Below are positions 1 through 53,900 of a stretch of 54,562 nt of DNA, in pieces. The DNA is from Candidatus Omnitrophota bacterium (GTDB lineage Bacteria; Omnitrophota; Gorgyraeia; Gygaellales; Profunditerraquicolaceae), in the NCBI GenBank assembly GCA_023247825.1, contig JAHFFR010000004.1, forward strand, positions 1-54,562, read 5' to 3'. A program made the translations under genes and the position numbers. Each line of letters begins with the position of its first letter. Within the stretch, counting starts at the first letter, position 1. Under the pieces are notes generated by a model, which was not told the origin of the DNA, did no database searches, and saw only the letters and a program-made list of their open reading frames with translations.

Positions 1-492
1 TTTAAGCAAGAATATGCTCGTAGAAAGCCCGACGTTAATCATGCACAAAATATAACCGATAGGGGTATTTCTTAAATGCAGCTTATTTAATAAAACATAA
101 AGCGCGACAAAGCTTCCCGGAACAGGAATCATCATTGCCGCCATAAACATAACAAATAAAAACTTTCTGCCCGCAAAACGCAAGCGGCTGAAAGCATAGG
201 CGGCCATAGAAGAAATGATAACTATCCCGAAAACTACTGAAACCGTATAAATAATGCTGTTAAAAAAGTTGCGCCCGAACCCGCCCTCTTTCCAGGCCAA
301 AACATAATTCTCCAAGCGAAACTGATGGGGAATTAACGAAATGTCTTTAAAAATCATACCCTGGGTTTTGAGGCTGGAAGAAACCATCCAGAGCAGCGGA
401 TAAAGGCAGATTATTGCTACGCTGATCAAAAAAAGATGGATCAGCGTATTAAGAATAATTTTTTTGCTTTTATAATAAAGCAGATGCTTCAT
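1..492 (-). CDS. Carbohydrate ABC transporter permease (second permease), 3' end truncated by the window edge
   Basis: Manual translation from ATG at 490-492 gives MKHLLYYKSKKIILNTLIHLFLISVAIICLYPLLWMVSSSLKTQ...ENYVLAWKEGGFGRNFFNSIIYTV...SMAAYAFSRLRF..., typical of MalG-type permeases. It starts 6 nt after the stop of the upstream permease and is not in the ORF track. Confidence 0.9.
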   Translation of the reverse strand, partial: MKHLLYYKSKKIILNTLIHLFLISVAIICLYPLLWMVSSSLKTQGMIFKDISLIPHQFRLENYVLAWKEGGFGRNFFNSIIYTVSVVFGIVIISSMAAYAFSRLRFAGRKFLFVMFMAAMMIPVPGSFVALYVLLNKLHLRNTPIGYILCMINVGLSTSIFLLK

Positions 493-32334: not shown

Positions 32335-32421
32335 GTTTTTTTAAGTTTCCCCTTAACAAAATCTTGCTTCCTTCTACATTTTGTCAATTCGATTATCAAT
32401 CTGTAAAATATCACGCCTATT

Positions 32422-32766
32422 CTATGAATTTAAAGGAATGTTCCGCAGCTTATTGCTCGCCCTTAAAAGCCGCGAAATACCCATTAAATCCGGCCGCTCC
32501 AAATGAATACCGGCTTTGTATTTATTGGAGTCCATCGTCTTTGACCAGACAACTTCTCCCTTGGCATATAGAAGATCGCTATTGTCGGGCATCTTAAACC
32601 ACATCTCCAAAGAATTACGCGGCTGCAGCTCCTCGCTGGTGACTACACCTATGCCGTTTGCGCTGACATCAAAGGTTGTTGCCTCTCCCTCCTTGTTTTC
32701 TTCGCGGTTAAGAAACCTCATTGGGAACTCTACCACAAACCTGGTGAACATCCTGCGGTCATCCAT
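32422..32766 (-). CDS. Standalone PilZ-domain protein, paralog of 2735-3043
   Basis: DRRMFTRF (RxxxR), DVSANG (DxSxxG), GEVVW, shared C-terminal LERxDLMGISRLLRA; SD AAAGGAGGGG. Confidence 0.88.
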   Translation of the reverse strand: MDDRRMFTRFVVEFPMRFLNREENKEGEATTFDVSANGIGVVTSEELQPRNSLEMWFKMPDNSDLLYAKGEVVWSKTMDSNKYKAGIHLERPDLMGISRLLRASNKLRNIPLNS

Positions 32767-32844: not shown

Positions 32845-32961
32845 TTAGATACGCATCTCCATCGTTACAATCAAATCACTCAACTCTTCTACTTCTTCCT
32901 GCCTGTCATCATCTTCCTCATCCCCCACCCCGCCGTCGGTTGGAATAGACCTGCTGCCGAA
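32845..32961 (-). pseudogene. In-frame relic module downstream of the giant gene's stop codon
   Basis: After TAA at 32962-32964 the same frame reads FGSRSIPT-DGG-VGDEEDDDRQEEVEELSDLIVTMEMRI*, with DGG encoded GACGGCGGG like the internal junctions. Confidence 0.5.
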
Positions 32962-35900
32962 TTAATTATTTAACTTTCTCCAGATGCTTGTGGTTAACTC
33001 TTCTAATTCGCTAATAATCAGTGTCTTCTGAAGATAAAAGACATCATGGGGATCCTTAAGGTCAATTCTAAGCTGTCTAATGAAGCCCCCTAAACCTGGC
33101 TCATTAATTTCTAAATTATGGTTTTTTAGTGTTTCCAAAATTATTCCGGCTATCTCCTTATCGTTTAAATCATTAGTTAAACCGGAATAAGCCATCGCAA
33201 ATATCCATTCAAAGAGATTCTGAAGTATAAGATAATTAGTAAGTTTCTTGATGTGTTCTAAATCTCTTATCCCCGAGACAGCCAAATTAGCGTATCGGAT
33301 AGCAACGCGAGGATTATCAACCTCGCCTACCCCATCTCCTTCGTCACATGTATATCTTAAATCCAATTTACCGCTCTCGCTACGCTCAATACAATGAAAT
33401 AAATATAGCAAATTTTCAGAAGCTAATTCTTTTTTAAATAGGCGATAAATATCGTTAAATACCTTTTCGGTCATTCTGGATAATCTTTCCATCCTTTTTT
33501 CCTTGGAAAGCCAGGGATAAGTGTTGTCCACGTAATCAAAATAATCGGATTCGACAATATAAACCAAAACTATTTTGCCTTCTATCTTGAATATCTTTGC
33601 CCCTTTCTTTATCGGCAAGGATAAATCTGAACGCAGCTTATCAATAAAACCCAATTCGCTGTACAATGCGTCTTCCGCATCCCCTTTTCTTTCGAATTTA
33701 AATACCTGAACCAAGCCATAGCTTAAAGGCACAATCAAGCTTCTTCCCAGCCAAAAGGAAACTCTGGCTTCTTGCGGAAGATTAACCGGTAAAAGGGGTT
33801 TTTCATTAATATAAACATCTTTAAGTTGAATGATCTTCGCTCTGCTCTCCAACCTCTGCGCATCTTTCAGGAACCTGTAGAGGCCTAAGAATCCCCTCTT
33901 TTCCAAAATTGGCTCAATAAGCTTCAAAATTGCTTTTGGTTCATCCAAAAAATAAGTATACGTATTTAAGAATAAAGGTAGGCTGTCTTGTAAATATAGG
34001 GATAGATTAATCTTGTTATTGTCTTCGGACAAATTATTTATCTTCTCAAAATAAGGTTTAATTTCGGCATAGTAAAAGGAGCAAAAATTTTCATTCAATT
34101 CTTTAATCTTAGCAAATAATTTGGTATCTTTAACAATGAAATCTATTATGATGCTATCCGCCTTAAAGCGAATATACCTGTTTTCTCTATTACTTAGCTC
34201 AATTAGCGTATCAAAGAGTTTTTTTTCTAATTTTTCGTGTCCGATTAAGCTAAAATTATCGGTAATCGTTTTGACTAATACGGCGCGCACATGAGGATCC
34301 GCTTCAGTTTGAAGCTCACTCGATAAAAAATTTAGGCGTTTTTCAGAATCCTCATATTGGCTGTGTTCGTACAGGATCCCTTGAGCGATCATGCGATGCA
34401 TACTCGAATCTTTAGTTACGAAAGAAACTTCAACTGCGTCTTTTATGTTATTTATTTTATCAAAATCCTGCGCGAGCGTAGCGGTGACGGAAGAAATGGC
34501 CTCAATAATTGCGGGATATTCATCTAACTCTATAGCTTTACTAACATCGGCCAATAAACAAAAAATATTTCTCTTAATCTCCTGCGGTAAATGCGGAATT
34601 ATTTCTGCAAGAAGAGAAAGAAATTCGTTTGTATTATTGCCCAAAAATTGCCTGTAATCGTCATTACACTCATAGAAATCTTTCAAAGAATGCATAATGT
34701 CTTTAATGCAAAAATCTATCCATTCTTCTAAATCTTTATTTTTCGGGTTTAGCCTCAGCAAAAAAACCAATAAATGTAAGTGCACATAGGGATGCTTTTC
34801 ATAAAATAAAGAGGTAATTAGGTGTCTAAAATAAGCGATTTCCGTTACTTGAATAGAACTCTCTTCCCCATTTAATACCCCGCCGTCTTGTTGATCCGTA
34901 GAGGCCTGTGATTTATTTTTTATCTTCCTAATCTTTTCTAAGAAAACTTCGTCAATTTTGCAATATCCCCGATTATTACAGGATAAAACTTTTAAACCTA
35001 TCAGATAATCTATAATTTTGTGCGTCTTCACAATAACCTCATCTTCCTCTAAGCCCATTCTTAAAAGCTCTTCCTCTACGCGGCTAATAAAAAATCCTCT
35101 GTGACGATAAGCTAAAACATTGATACTTGTAAAAGACTCGATTATTTTCCAATCTAAAGACGAAGGGCCTAATTTACTCAAATAGACCTCAAGTGCCTCG
35201 GGCGATATCCGAACATGATTATTCAACGCCCCGCCGTCATGTTGATTTAGATCCTCTTTAGTATTAGTATCGCCTTCCGGTAACGAAGATACCGGAAATG
35301 ACGCCTCTATGTCTACTATTAAAATAGACATCATTTCATTTAAGGCTGAAAAAATTACGAATAAACCGATTAGAAATAAAGAATATGCCTTAAATAGCCC
35401 CAATATAAATACCGTAGATAATGAAACAGGGGAAAGGAGAAATATTTCTTGCAAATACATAACTGCGCCGGCCAGCATAAATATAAAACCTATCGCTATT
35501 CCTAATTTCCCTGCCTCAAGGGTGGCATCTCGATATCCTTTTTTCTGGCAAAGATACGCTCTTAAATACCTCCCGCCATCCATAGGGAAAGCCGGCACAA
35601 GGTTAAAAATCACGAGAATAAAGTTTATAAGGCCTAATGCCGTAAGCAAAACGTCGCTTAAAATAAAGCCGAAAATGATAAATAATATCCCGAGTTTTAA
35701 ACTCATTGCCGGGCCTGCTAAACTTATTTTCTTTTCCGCCGCCGGCTCAGAAAACCTATTGTTTTTTATCTGCGCGATGCCTCCGAGAATAAATAAAGTT
35801 ATGGATTCCGCATTAATTCCTTCTTTGTGAGCAGTATAAATATGGGCCATTTCATGTAACATGACCATGCCGTACAAAGCAACGACAAATGAAATTCCCG

Positions 35901-47900: not shown

Positions 47901-50900
47901 TAGAAAATACATTCTGGATCTCTGCTAAGGTTCCTGCGATGCCATACGAATTTCTCTTTAAAACCTCTAATGTCTGTTCTACTGTGGCATCAGGGCCGTA
48001 TTTTCTTTCAAGTAAATATGATTCAAAGGCAATGTTAATGGCATTAATAAACGCATTCCTAATAATCGCTTTTTGATCTTCTAAAAGTGGTATTGTCTTA
48101 ACTATGCCATCTATACTCCCTATAAATTCATTTAACAATTCAATGCGATTCCCGCCGCTGAAAATGTATTTATTAGCTTTTAACTTACTCAATGCCGCGT
48201 TATCCACTCCTCGCTTCGCAAATTCTTCTTTTTCCGGCAGAGTAACTGCTGCTCCATTCCTTACCGCCTTCTGGAAGCGCTCTTCCAACTCCTGAAGGGT
48301 AAATCTGTCGCCAAATTCATCAAGAATATCATCTCCTAATTCTATAATATAAATTAAAAACCCCGCTAATAATTGATATATTTGGTACTTGCGCATATCC
48401 TTTAGAGAAAGCCCAATTAAATTGGTAATAGTATAAATATAAAGCTTATTATGAAACATTAAATTTATTCCCATATTTCTATCCGATTCATCTTCTTCTA
48501 CAATATCTCTAAAGTAACTTAAGATGCTTAAGGTATTCTTTAATCTCATAATTAATCTCGTACTCTTTCCATACCTTGCAGAAATTCCGCCGTCTTTTTC
48601 TTTAGGAGGGGCCTTGCCGGTTACCCTCTCAAAATCTTCTTTTATTTTCTCTGCGGGTAGGAATTCAGATTTATCTTGGTTATTTTCCTTTGTATTTCTT
48701 AATTTTAATAACTGGCAGATAATGTATACCGCAACTGCAGACCACAACGCAATCTCGGTAACAATATCCCGCTCTCCGAAAAATTCTTCTTTGTTTCTCG
48801 TAGGGGCGGGAGTAGCTTGCGGAGTAACAGTAACTTCTATTTCGGGAGTTTTTAGAGGAGCTGCCCTTGTTATCCCTAATTCCTGCGGAGTCTTGCCAAT
48901 CATCTGGTACCATTTGTATTTTTGAGAATAAAGCAGTTTACTACCGGTTGGAGGAATCGCGGACCCTGCCTCCGGGTCAAGAGGAACTTCTCCGTTTTTA
49001 GTCTTTAGTAAAAGGATAAAACGCTCTGGTTTGCCATCATTGTTTGTATCCAAGCCGACAATCTCGCTATCAACCCAAGGTAAATATAGGCAGCTCAAGA
49101 ACACCAGAAGCTCTTCAGGAGTTGCGGATCCGGGCGCTTTTTGAGTCAGATTGTCAAATGTTTTATCCGGTGTCTGAATCGGTTTATTAACATCGTCTCT
49201 GGAGATTAAAGACTTGAAGCCTCCGGATTTTTCTCTTATTTCCGCATAAAGGACGATTAATGGGTGTTTGCTGTATTTAAGAGTAAAGCTTATTGTTTTA
49301 ACACATTCATCAAGAGGGAAATTGGGTGGGATTTCTTGGCCGGCCGCTCTCTCTTTATTTATATAATCTTCAATAATCTCTAATGCTTTATAATCCAACC
49401 CTTCATTGCTTAACGCCGCTGCCGCTTTTATTGCCCCGGCTATGCCTATAGATGAAGCAAGCACCCCTAACCCAAGATATTTTGTGATCTCTTCCATAAA
49501 TTTTCTACGCTTTAACATAATAATGCCATCTTTCTGCTCCCCGCCATCCCTGCCCTGCCTGGATAATTCCTCGAATAACTGTTTCGGGATATCCTTTTTT
49601 GAAATAAGACCCATTGTTAGTAATATACCTCCCAGCGCTTTTAGCCGCGCAATCTCTGTAATATAATGAAGAGAGAAAATATCGTAACCAACATCAGAAC
49701 CTAACTTATACCTAGTAATAATTTCCGGAATTGTTTCCTTGTTTTTTATCATTTCTTCACCCAACCGAAGTACCGCAGGTAATAAACAATCCATTATGAT
49801 TTCTAATTCTTTCATCTCTTCTTCACTGTATTTTATTTTTTTTGCGCCGAAACCAAAAATAGTTTTTACTAGTTGGTGCCCGCGATTAATTGTATAGAAT
49901 AGCAGTTGTTCAAAATTATTCGGTGCCGGATCTCCTAAAAGTGCGCTATCCAGCATTGGAAAGCTTGTAATATCCTTTTGCGCGTCCACATCGCCCGCCA
50001 GCGCTTTTTTCAGCAGATTATCTATCGTTAAAAATCTCTCTATCGCTTTGACCTTTTCAATTGCTGCTTTATAATCAGGATAGGCTTCTAACAGCCGGCT
50101 GTAATTTTCTTCTAATTTTCCGTCGCTTTCCCAATCATTTAACTGCCGGTAAATTTCCTCTTCGGGCTTTCCTTCTTTATTTTTTAATAGTATCCGTATT
50201 ATATATTTGAAATATTTATTCTTTACTTCGCCGGGAAGCTTTTCCAATAAATCATCAGCGCCGCCGTCAAATAATCCAGAAACACCTAACTTTTGTTCTC
50301 CGGCCTTCACAACATCGTCAAGTGTTGATTTCTCAATTAGAAGCATTGAAATCTCATATTCAGAAACATTGGTTGTCTGTAATCTTTTAATAATATCGAC
50401 AACCTCCTTGGTTTTTTTCAGAAGTCCTGGAATCTCAGAGTAGTCAATCCATTTCTTCTGTGCATAGATTGGCAAGTAAAATTTTTCAAACTTCTCGATT
50501 ACTTCATTCCAAACCCAAGTACCGTTACGCACATCATCTCTAAAGGCAAATATTTCGTATATTATTCCTTCTTCTGCGGTTAACATAGAAATTACTAATT
50601 TTCCTGAAGGTTTTAATCTGGTTTTAGTTTTTTCGGGATGGAATCCTCCGATCAGGTATTTATACAGAAAATACGCCCTGTGCAGATCTTCATGCACTGT
50701 CACCCCAGCATCTTCTGATAAAATACTAATAGATACATTATTAAAAGGAGCAGGAAGGATACCGGGATGTATGGTAATCCCGAGAATGCTTGTGGGAAGC
50801 CCCAATTTGCCCTGAAGACCGCTGCCATACCACTTTTTATTTGAGACTACAATTGTAGGAGTTAATGCTTCTAATCCATATATCTCTTTTAAAATTCTAT

Positions 50901-53900
50901 ACTTGTCGTAACCAATTTTTGCCCCTTCAAAATCAGATGTTTTTATAGAAGATACGTTAGGAGCATCGTACTCTCTTAATGCCTCTACAAGTTTATTTAG
51001 ATTTTCCGGGCTATTTATATTCCCTATGATTTCCCTTGCTTTATTCTCTTTTTTCTTTAATTCCTCTATCTTTTGGTCATTTATATTTTGTCTTGTTTTA
51101 TAAGCAACTTCACATTTCGTAAGCGCTTCAAGCGCATCAACCAAAATCATTGGTTTATCTTCGGGATATCCACTATTATCTTTTTTAACTATTATTCCAA
51201 TCCTATTTTTAAATTCTTCCCTCCAATCCAACCACTTCTGAACTCCTTTATCATTAAATAACCAAAGAAGATGACGAGTAGCGCTATATACCAAATCCTG
51301 CCATTTAGCATATCTTACCCATCGTTTCACATCTTTTCCTTTTATCTGTTCTAATATATTATTTTGAAATGCCTGTACTTTTTTATAATCAGCTTGATAC
51401 ATCCATAAATATTTTATAATTTTCTTAAGTAATCCCTCTTTTTCTTCTATCGCCAACTTCTTCATAGCAGTCTCTGTAATCAGAGAAGAATCCTGCTTGG
51501 TTACCGCTGTAATTATTTTCCTTGCCTGTTCGGATAATATACTATCAATGAAACTTTCTATCTTAGGTACATCTACTCCGCTAATAACTTTTACCAGTAT
51601 ATTTTGAATTTCCCATAATGCTCTTGCGCCTATAACTCTGGGATATATCTCCTTGCCAGTGGAATCTATAAATATAAAAGTAGGGGTTGCATTAACATGG
51701 TATAGATACCATGTTGGCATATCTTCATAATCCTTGATTTTTACACACACAAAGTTATCTTTAAAGAATTCTTGCAGTTTTGTGTCTGAGAAGACCTCTT
51801 GCACCATAATTTTACAAGCAGAACATTCGTTTATATCTTTACCAAAATAAATCAGCATTTTTCTTCCGGTTTTTTCAGCTTCTTTTCTTGCTTCTTCCAC
51901 AGAGGTATACCACCATTTCATTATTTCTTGCTCATCTGCAAAAATTGGCTCTTCAGGTATAGATTTTTCTTCTTCAATTTTACCTTCGGGGACAATAATC
52001 CGAGTAAGGCTATCGAAATCAATGACGCGATCGGCAGATTTTTCTTCTTTACGCCTCTTTCTAAAAAATCTATCAAAAATACCAAGAATGGAAAAAGAAA
52101 TGAGAAAACTTTCCGCTTTTCCTGTCCTGCCGCCGTCAGTAGAATCATAATTTTTCTTAAATTTAGAATTCTGTCTTATTAATTGCTTAAGTAACCACAA
52201 AGTTGCTTCTGGCCCTCTTAAGCCAATTATCATCGGGACACAAATCTGTTTTGGATTGTTGGAGTCGCACTTATCAACAGAAAAACTACCTTCTTCTTTA
52301 AGAAATTCGTAGTCATTTCCTTTGGCGTCGCCGCGATCCCCAAATTTTCCCATATCACGGATTTTAATCTTAAGCCGCTTGGCCAAGTTAGACAGCGGTA
52401 TTGACTTATCTACTCCAATTAAAGTTAACTCTACAGCAATACTTGAAGCTGTTGCATTCAATCCTAAATTATGCTGCTCGACAAATTCTGTTAAAGTCTC
52501 CTGATATTTGGGTATAAGTTTATTATCTTTGAAATCAGTAAAGTTAATTTTATATTCGGTAAATCTACTGGTGCATATCCCTCTTACATCCAAAGGATAA
52601 AGGTATTTTTCTTCTTCAAAATAAGAGCGCCACTCTTCTTTGAAACAAACTACATTCGGATTATTTTCTTGCGCATCCCACTCCCAATTAATAAACTTTG
52701 CGACTTGTTTGCGTATATCATCGGGGAATTTAATTTCGTAATAGATTTCACCAGTGCCAACATTATATCCGGAAGCGCCTCCAGAATGATATACATGAAT
52801 CCGCTTAAAGCTATCCGGAGTCAACCGCGGATGTTCTCTTAATTTGGAAACTAAACGGTCTTCTATATATTCCTGCCTGCCGTGGGTAATAATCGCCAAA
52901 TGCATTCCTAATTTCACAACAATATCTACCAAAGCCTCAATCATCTCCTTTGTCGGCTCTTTATCATCGTAAATCGTCCCATCACCATCTACAGCTACCA
53001 CTTTATAATCCCGACTAAGCGCTTCAAGCAATTTTACTTTTAATATACTAGGCTGCCCAACATCTTTAAAAACAGGAGTGATTGGGACTCTATTTCCCGT
53101 GCCGCCGTCACTTTTTCCTTTTTTATCAGAATATTCATTTTTATATAAAGCAGTAAGGTATTTTCTTAACCATTCTTCCTGGGCTTTCCTGCGGTCAGCT
53201 ATAGATTCACCTAAACAAAACGTCTCAAATGATAATCTATCTTTTCCCCGGATTATCAAGCCCTTTTGTTTCTTCCTAAATGCGCCGGTCACTCTGCCGA
53301 TATCGGACTTCTTAATTTCAACCAAATCAAGTTCTCCTTGGTTATATTTATCGATGAGCAAGTCCAATACTCCATCAACGTGAATCCGTTCTGATTCGGG
53401 CCTTTTTTCATTAATAACATCGGTGATCTCTTCGGGAATAAACGGGGTATTGAAATCTCTGGCTGCCAAATAATTGTCTATTTCCATAACAATCTTTTGC
53501 TTATACAATCCGCGCATTGCCTTTATTGCCTGCTCTCTTAATACCAGCCAATAAGATATTTCCTGAGAATATTCTTTTTGACTATTGCTAATAACATAAA
53601 ATCGACTGTGATCATTTTGTTCCTCATTGACTATTATTGCAATATCTGCGAAAGTCTTATTTTGACCGGAGAATATTGTGCTATTTTGCAAGTTTGCCCT
53701 TTTTACTGATTTTTCCATGACATGTCCATAATCTTCCTTCGAAAGGACAATAACTTCCCAGTCCTCAGGCGGGATACTTTTTTCAACAACGGCTTCGTCA
53801 GGAGCTAAAAATGTTTTTCTACTGCCAAAAATATTTATTCTTTCAGTTAAGAAAGATTCGGGGGCTATCTTTTTGTGCGGCTCAATCTTAAAATCTTTCT

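Follow-up and report, generated by a model that had tools for sequence, protein, structure and literature searches.

A giant open reading frame punctuated by Asp-Gly-Gly

Contig JAHFFR010000004.1 of a Candidatus Omnitrophota bacterium (assembly GCA_023247825.1) carries on its minus strand an open reading frame (ORF) of 7,199 codons without a stop (positions 32962-54561), in whose product the tripeptide DGG recurs between unrelated domains. The window that we analyzed is the whole contig (54,562 nucleotides, hereafter C64), which belongs to a 1.41-Mb, roughly 90%-complete genome. The G+C content of the ORF is 35-39%, compared with 42% for the genome. Its 5' end is open, and the gene start is missing, because the contig ends there.

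Giant ORFs that tile unrelated Pfam domains (methyltransferase, GNAT, HAD, radical SAM, TPR/HEAT), many of them with C39, have been described in Omnitrophota (West-Roberts et al. 2023, bioRxiv 10.1101/2023.11.21.568195; Nielsen and Lui 2026, bioRxiv 10.64898/2026.06.07.730766), with genes of up to about 147,000 codons (bioRxiv 10.64898/2026.06.07.730766). Post-translational cleavage of the giant proteins has been proposed, and missing information on cleavage points blocked structural analysis in the 2023 preprint (bioRxiv 10.1101/2023.11.21.568195). Neither of these preprints mentions DGG or another junction motif, and a text search of the literature returned nothing relevant.

The ORF encodes 18 DGG, whereas 1.50 are expected from composition (Poisson P=5.6e-14). 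This 12-fold enrichment excludes chance or composition as the origin of the motif, and DGG is the most over-represented tripeptide of the giant protein. One copy belongs to the catalytic motif of an M50 protease domain. The other 17 lie in short hydrophilic linkers spaced 117-652 residues (351-1,956 bp) apart, all on one strand and in frame. The count and the excess over chance bear out a first-pass annotation of the window, which had described 17 non-catalytic DGG about 350-1,960 bp apart. In the other large fusion proteins of the window DGG is at chance level; it is thus not a general linker of the organism, and we rejected that explanation.

The first-pass annotation had placed the start of the array at 32929. 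This position belongs to an additional in-frame GACGGCGGG (DGG) that lies 8 codons past the TAA and hence outside the ORF. It is followed by a 27-codon acidic stretch and a second TAA. The tail probably preserves what was once the last junction and the acidic C-terminus of the protein, and the TAA at 32962-32964 looks like a recent nonsense mutation or a read-through codon that severs them from the gene.

The DGG peptide is under selection

Both giant ORFs of this genome are incomplete, and the comparisons reported here rest on one paralogue and a few metagenome-assembled genomes (MAGs) of the same genus. The paralogue, on contig C14 (31.9 kb), is a single ORF of 10,628 codons that is open at both ends. 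It contains 39 DGG, compared with 2.15 expected, and six modules of C64 have paralogues in it that are 69-88% identical. Its Pfam domains include Radical SAM, amidohydrolase, Fic, Transglut_core and HEAT.

We aligned 13 homologous junction pairs from C64, C14 and the same-genus Omnitrophota MAG G495. DGG is invariant in all of them, between flanks that are unrelated and contain insertions and deletions, as in 'V---SL[DGG]KK' versus 'VKDNKE[DGG]GK'. The DGG codons themselves differ synonymously, at wobble positions, in 11 of the 13 pairs. An invariant peptide between diverged flanks, encoded by codons that drift, shows that selection acts on the peptide, and we conclude that DGG is kept by selection at the protein level. 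Losses of the motif are by ordinary mutation: DGE, GGG and DVG stand where relatives have DGG, and at residue 1672 a clean four-codon indel ('DGGE') separates C64 from its paralogue. The single DGE noticed in the first-pass annotation is one of these real degenerate junctions, since it aligns with a DGG of the giant ORF on contig C49 of G495 (G495:C49).

Upstream of the motif, the only preferences are for Lys at -1 (19 of 56 junctions) and for Lys or Ser at -2, and positions -12 to -1 hold almost no information. Gly-Gly is invariant at the 17 junctions of the present ORF and at 56 when C14 is included. DGG is a functional punctuation mark between whole-protein cassettes.

Modules are exchanged at the DGG codons

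The order of modules around DGG differs between the giant genes. On C64, a TPR module is followed by DGG and by a module in which domain A is fused to a methyltransferase. On C14 the order is A, DGG, a segment of 50 residues, DGG, TPR, DGG and methyltransferase, and in G495 A and its DGG are retained with a different module next to them. Alignments between such genes end within 15 residues of a DGG in 35 of 64 cases, versus 5.7 expected from circular shifts. Six junctions have homology on one side only. Compared in 15-base bins, the nucleotide sequences there go from an identity of about 0.6-1.0 to one of about 0.1-0.5, or roughly 25%, on reaching the DGG codons, and the first mismatch lies within one or two bases of them. 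Since identity drops exactly there, modules have been exchanged at these codons: it is precisely at DGG that paralogous and orthologous giant genes have gained, lost or reordered modules. The idea, raised in the first-pass annotation, that module boundaries of related giant genes would coincide with DGG therefore holds for the paralogue and the same-genus orthologue. Such flush breakpoints can be explained by microhomology at the shared codons or by selection for intact modules.

An independent view of one breakpoint comes from G495, in which the first 141 bases of contigs C49 and C52, the k-mer length of the assembler, are identical and end in AAAGACGGCGGGGCG (AAA GAC GGC GGG GCG), after which the contigs diverge. 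The assembly graph branches here, precisely at a junction.

The modules between junctions

Pfam scans were run in two ways, on single segments and on unsplit overlapping pieces. In both, the domains detected (HAD/Hydrolase_3, thioredoxin-like, TPR, S-adenosylmethionine (SAM) methyltransferase, GNAT, nucleotidyltransferase and M50) each lie inside one inter-junction interval and no domain crosses a junction, as the first-pass annotation had stated. Its labels for these domains stand, but 'isoprenoid synthase-like', 'amidoligase-like' and 'SidJ-like' found no support in Pfam, and sequence searches of the PDB with the latter two modules gave no match.

Whether modules are whole proteins was tested for module 8, and sequence and model indicate that it is one. 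It has free-standing homologues of 433-446 residues, one of which sits among housekeeping genes, and their Met aligns about 20-30 residues after DGG. In an AlphaFold2 model of the module built on the alignment with these homologues (predicted local distance difference test score, pLDDT, 80.5), scores under 50 mark DGG with the first 16 residues, and also the final 5 residues, as disordered.

A signal-like first hydrophobic segment lies at most 60 residues behind DGG in 14 of 26 modules, compared with 7.7 expected. Module 4 is an example internal to the giant ORF: its signal (LKRRKFMEE and a hydrophobic stretch ending in AAAA) is accompanied by a second hydrophobic segment. The C14 paralogue of this module keeps the signal-like segments and has no DGG in front of them. 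No orthologues of the fused A-methyltransferase module were found in 40 relatives, and a word-indexed protein search for giant relatives returned no match.

Table 1. The giant ORF, its modules and its DGG junctions (window positions; aa, residue of the ORF product)
Feature	Position	Strand	Description
Giant ORF	32962..54561	-	7,199 codons, 5' end cut by contig end; TAA stop 32962-32964
In-frame tail past TAA	32848..32961	-	FGSRSIPT-DGG-VGDEEDDDRQEEVEELSDLIVTMEMRI-stop, probably a remnant; GACGGCGGG at 32929-32937
Module 1	52138..53109	-	HAD-type hydrolase (Hydrolase_3); 88% identity to C14 aa 4103-4425
Module 2	50269..52137	-	Thioredoxin-like domain and HEDLH motif
Module 4	48595..49548	-	Tat/Sec-like signal at start: MLKRRKFMEE, then hydrophobic stretch
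Module 8	44935..46086	-	Domain with invariant Cys141/His168/Asp185, then TPR repeats
Module 9	43288..44934	-	Domain A fused to SAM methyltransferase; separate modules in C14, TPR cassette between
Module 10	42733..43287	-	GNAT acetyltransferase; 55% identity to module of G495:C52
Module 12	40444..41574	-	HExxH (HEFAH) metalloprotease-like; paralogue in C14, relatives in G495:C49 and G014:C6
Module 13	39136..40443	-	Nucleotidyltransferase and second unit behind degenerate DGE
Module 15	35239..37179	-	HEGGH region and membrane M50 (site-2 protease) domain
Junction DGG aa 485	53101..53109	-	GACGGCGGC; HAD module start; C14 homology begins exactly here
Junction DGG aa 809	52129..52137	-	
Junction DGG aa 1432	50260..50268	-	
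Junction DGG aa 1672	49540..49548	-	C14 paralogue lacks exactly four codons, DGGE
Junction DGG aa 1990	48586..48594	-	
Junction DGG aa 2370	47446..47454	-	
Junction DGG aa 2654	46594..46602	-	C14 homology begins exactly here
Junction DGG aa 2826	46078..46086	-	Start of Cys-His-Asp and TPR module
Junction DGG aa 3210	44926..44934	-	TPR module end, module A start; C14 neighbours differ, break flush on both sides
Junction DGG aa 3759	43279..43287	-	Methyltransferase module end; C14 homology stops exactly here
Junction DGG aa 3944	42724..42732	-	
Junction DGG aa 4330	41566..41574	-	
Junction DGG aa 4707	40435..40443	-	
Junction DGG aa 5143	39127..39135	-	
Junction DGG aa 5795	37171..37179	-	
Junction DGG aa 6442	35230..35238	-	
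Junction DGG aa 6559	34879..34887	-	
Non-junction DGG aa 6328	35572..35580	-	Catalytic M50 site-2-protease motif PAFPMDGG
Degenerate junction DGE aa 4932	39760..39768	-	GACGGCGAA; aligns with DGG 4074 of same-genus ORF G495:C49
Degenerate junction GGG aa 2804	46144..46152	-	GGCGGCGGG; paralogue HAGNRA-DGG at C14 aa 7735
Degenerate junction DVG aa 500	53056..53064	-	GATGTTGGG; C14 paralogue has DGG (aa 4125)

Directly downstream of the giant gene, at about 32420-32766 on the minus strand, lies a small ORF that starts MDDRRMFTRFVVEFPMRF and by eye looks like a PilZ-type domain. An exact-match scan of the metagenome contigs for an extension of C64 gave no match; the ORF-side end of C64 and both ends of C14 overlap no binned contig. 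The left end of C64 (window 1-120) overlaps contig C21 by 120 bases. Overlaps of 120-121 bases occur at many contig ends of this assembly, so that contigs could be joined on the assembly graph.

Distribution of DGG punctuation

In the same genus, G495:C35 is one ORF of 27,888 codons with 66 DGG (7.4 expected). Further DGG-rich pieces of G495 are C49 (6,678 codons, 26 DGG) and C52, and G012:C34 has 7 DGG in 2,178 codons. Of the G495 contigs, C75 includes the start of a giant ORF and C52 a C-terminus, and neither end of the ORF is closed on C35 or C49 (loci L055-L059, L064-L066, L110-L113); together the four might derive from a single gene exceeding 55,000 codons. Two other giant ORFs of the genus, G023:C20 and G014:C6, are without DGG punctuation. 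The HAD module has relatives in 15 further giant ORFs (15 genomes) across the phylum, essentially without DGG nearby, so the punctuation is not phylum-wide. AGG-like words serve in place of DGG in some sister genes. In G074:C7 and G181:C47 (loci L009, L014) the HAD module is flanked on both sides by one word, DRSE or RAEVRG respectively, and these words may be further lineage-specific punctuation marks.

Not every DGG-rich ORF of this genome reflects one phenomenon, a grouping that we considered and rejected. On contig C68, two ORFs (4,871 and 1,970 codons) contain YSTDGGATYP about every 95 residues, in Asp-box-like repeats unrelated to junction DGG; a similar array in G166:C1, at 466-479 kb, is likewise distinct. 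No ordinary genes with leader peptides ending in DGG were found in this genome.

Candidate proteases

Gly-Gly before a presumed cut calls to mind C39 peptidases, and C39 domains were present in 177 of the 401 Omnitrophota genomes sampled, often in giant ORFs. At the N-terminus of the giant ORF of G495:C75, a membrane anchor precedes a C39 domain at residues 263-371 (31.3 bits), with its Cys in NNCG and its His in EHFVLI; 21 DGG lie downstream, within residues 2300-8700. No ABC transporter domain was seen next to this C39. The C39-like peptidase that the first-pass annotation had suggested looking for is accordingly present in cis in a DGG-rich gene of the same genus, but not in the present assembly. 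In the same family, G243:C2 (loci L027, L095, L104) has a frame that stays open for 59,091 codons and contains two C39 matches, near 42.7-45.5 kb, and no DGG in the stretches examined.

Other candidates are encoded in cis by the DGG-punctuated genes: modules with Cys-His-Asp and TPR, a rare JAB-like module with HNHP...PSxxD (C14), three HExxH modules and the M50 domain. In module 8, a candidate transglutaminase-like or papain-fold cysteine peptidase, C141, H168 and D185 are invariant in 6 sequences, and the model places a helix before strands. Pfam detects no domain of this kind in it, Foldseek returned only TPR matches, and hhalign to a Transglut_core-positive module gave E=0.85. The JAB/JAMM-like module (C14 residues 5924-6309, locus L034:1774-2931) contains the motif HNHPGEGYIYPSPVD, with HEAT repeats behind it. 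A search of 1.84 billion representative proteins yielded no more than 5 distant homologues; HNHP...S..D is kept in all and PS..D in three, and some of these proteins hold 3-4 copies. The module may represent an undescribed JAB-like family. A single-sequence AlphaFold2 model was unusable (pLDDT 34). We discarded the module as a Gly-Gly protease, the giant hosts of its 5 homologues being without DGG.

DGG as a putative cleavage site and cassette joint

We consider it somewhat probable that DGG is a polyprotein cleavage motif that also serves as an in-frame joint for cassette shuffling. A protease site appears to be the most economical explanation of the motif, with the balance of probability slightly on its side. 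The gene would then encode a polyprotein, a chain of about 20 complete, unrelated proteins joined by short hydrophilic DGG linkers and including a HAD hydrolase, a thioredoxin-like protein, a Cys-His-Asp and TPR protein, a methyltransferase, GNAT, a nucleotidyltransferase, HExxH proteins and an M50 protease. At DGG an endopeptidase would recognize the precursor and cut it into its modules. We place the putative cut after Gly-Gly, by analogy with double-glycine, ubiquitin-like (Ubl)-type and viral papain-like proteases. The likeliest candidate for this enzyme is a C39-type peptidase that would form the N-terminus of the giant protein itself, as it does in the relative of the same genus. Because the same three codons stand at both ends of every module, any in-frame recombination at DGG would be viable, and the cleavage motif would thereby also act as a cassette joint. 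In-frame recombination between two sets of DGG codons, which share an 8-base microhomology (mostly GACGGCGG), would yield a viable new polyprotein.

The first-pass annotation had offered two models, a proteolytic site and the translated footprint of a DNA recombination site. We favor the former as the likelier inference: conservation of the peptide through synonymous change, disorder at the DGG of the one module modeled and the C39 of the relative speak for it, whereas the lack of C39 in this assembly and the SSP punctuation of orthologues (below) speak against it. The latter survives in a weak form, with DGG codons as exchange points, but not as a dedicated DNA site.

Several observations weigh against cleavage at DGG. 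C39 (PF03412, PF13529) was not found in this 90%-complete assembly, which lacks the start of the gene and contains nothing homologous to the initial 4,000 residues of the G495 gene. Eight other C39-bearing giants that we sampled have DGG at chance level near their C39, and we rejected C39 as a general partner of DGG. No conserved amphipathic leader with hydrophobic positions lies upstream of DGG, unlike in C39 substrates. Decayed junctions (DGE, GGG, DVG), and a module pair that is fused here but split in the paralogue, imply that cutting at every site is not essential. Finally, three genomes of the same genus (G008, G009 and G020) share the anchor and an intact C39, yet their giant genes are punctuated by SSP[VI], with 19, 13 and 14 copies respectively versus about 2 expected, and have DGG at chance; SSP is not plausible as a C39 site. 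These SSP[VI] giants (G008:C7, G009:C12, G020:C3; loci L101-L103, L114-L118) measure 8,880-14,792 codons.

The two punctuation words can be compared directly in a module common to G495 and G008 (about 50% identity), which ends in DGG in the former and in SSPV in the latter. Between types, the C39 domains share 34% identity, compared with 65% within the SSP type, a divergence that, in this single contrast, fits co-variation of the peptidase with the word. The fuller proposal, in which the DGG codons are both cleavage site and universal in-frame joint while the punctuation word (DGG or SSP[VI]) and a cis-encoded C39-type peptidase co-vary, is possible but doubtful.

Alternative explanations

One alternative retains the exchange and reverses its cause, in that DGG would be the footprint of a dedicated site-specific (integron-like) recombination system, with GACGGCGG conserved as a DNA site and the peptide a by-product. 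The copies are all on one strand and in frame, the breakpoints are flush with the motif, and this octamer encodes 35 of 57 junctions although GAC makes up only 21% of Asp codons in these genes. The codon preference is, however, also seen in ordinary genes of the genome, which use GAC before Gly in 55% of cases and GGC-GGN for Gly-Gly in 54%, and whose own DGGs have 57% GAC and 59% GGC. About half of the junction bias is thus a genome-wide codon-pair habit, and what is left of it (binomial P=3e-5) agrees with the use of preferred codons where a site is critical. Beyond the 8 coding bases we found no nucleotide conservation and no inverted repeats at the junctions. Wobble bases vary in 11 of 13 homologous junctions and amino acids never do, and point changes or a four-codon indel create or remove DGG without rearrangement. 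The window proteins scanned with Pfam are ABC-transporter parts or match no family, and none is a recombinase (three further large ORFs fell outside the scan). With no extended site, drifting wobble bases, a general codon habit and no recombinase among the proteins scanned, a dedicated recombination site is very unlikely, and synonymous drift appears largely to refute it.

A second alternative also accepts selection on the peptide, and takes DGG as an uncleaved hinge (a conserved turn) or a docking tag for a chaperone, secretion factor or modifying enzyme. The giant protein would remain a beads-on-a-string scaffold, whose modules shuffle at DGG because only there are joints tolerated. A protease for the motif was not found in this genome, and sister genes are punctuated by other triplets of small residues (SSP[VI] and AGG-like words), which are usual in linkers. 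Decay of junctions and fusion of a module pair are tolerated, and the module 4 paralogue on C14 does without DGG before its signal-like segment. All this suits an uncleaved joint. Flexible linkers, however, tolerate swaps among G, S, N, D and E, whereas D, G and G are invariant in 13 pairs in which all neighbours change. The motif is also absent from other multi-enzyme fusions in the window, and signal-like N-termini directly behind DGG are more frequent than expected. We judge this alternative unlikely. A third alternative starts from Asp-Gly, the sequence most prone to succinimide and isoaspartate formation: the junctions might be built-in weak points or timers that work by spontaneous chemistry and need no enzyme. 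The strict Asp at 13 conserved junctions, never Glu or Asn, agrees with this. Isoaspartate formation at Asp-Gly, however, isomerizes the chain and does not cut it, and neither the second invariant Gly nor the SSP punctuation of sister genes is explained, so that we find spontaneous chemistry scarcely credible.

Significance of the junction map and comparison with known systems

Whether and where giant Omnitrophota products are cut is the question that the DGG map addresses. As a map of candidate cleavage sites, the conserved tripeptide indicates where giant proteins could be split for structure prediction and which peptide termini to expect. Nucleotide-exact exchange at its codons shows how giant genes can grow and diversify quickly with the frame intact, and DGG would, if cleavage and joining are both confirmed, be a natural 'standard connector' by which whole genes are assembled into giant ones. 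The split between DGG and SSP within one genus is a natural experiment on the joint evolution of a protease and its sites. Were word and C39 indeed to co-vary, peptidase specificity and dozens of sites would have switched together.

Among arrays built by recombination, integrons have an adjacent recombinase and an extended site conserved in nucleotides. Here no recombinase was found among the window proteins scanned, and no such site at the junctions. Polymorphic toxins (Rhs DPxGL, CdiA VENN) offer a closer likeness, since a short conserved peptide marks the point of recombinational exchange, and the Rhs motif is also part of a self-cleavage site, the same dual role as we propose for DGG. They have one motif ahead of one C-terminal toxin domain, compared with 17 to more than 60 DGG between enzymes, and no Rhs/YD or FHA repeats were detected here. 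MARTX toxins, whose modules are released by an internal cysteine protease, are likewise very large arrays of enzymatic modules with set and order varying between relatives. Their Peptidase_C80 and RTX repeats were not found by Pfam in this ORF or C14, their linkers contain Leu in place of DGG, and their modules are far fewer.

Processing at double glycines by C39 domains of PCAT/AMS ABC transporters (ComA, LagD, PCAT1) resembles the proposed reaction in the Gly-Gly (P2-P1) before the presumed cut and in the intact Cys/His C39 at the N-terminus of the relative's DGG-rich giant ORF. It differs in acting on one N-terminal leader with conserved hydrophobic positions, whereas there are dozens of internal sites here, and no such leader upstream of DGG. 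Viral polyproteins (coronavirus PLpro, LxGG; adenain, xGG-x) match the proposal in releasing many proteins from one ORF at a repeated site ending in Gly-Gly. Their protease is encoded in cis, whereas here there is only a candidate protease, the gene is a cellular bacterial one, and the cargo consists of metabolic or modifying enzymes.

The closest setting is that of the giant Omnitrophota proteins themselves, with which the present ORF shares an uninterrupted frame of thousands of codons (7,199 here and 10,628 on C14) and many unrelated Pfam domains. Such proteins also have an N-terminal anchor with a C39, S8 or SecA-type domain; the start of the present gene lies outside the assembly, and the anchor with C39 is present in G495:C75, G008, G009 and G020. 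To what was known of them the present analysis adds the DGG punctuation, its conservation at the protein level as tested by synonymous drift, the nucleotide-exact breakpoints of module exchange, an explanation of the codon bias, a junction past a stop codon and the split between DGG and SSP among C39-bearing orthologues of one genus.

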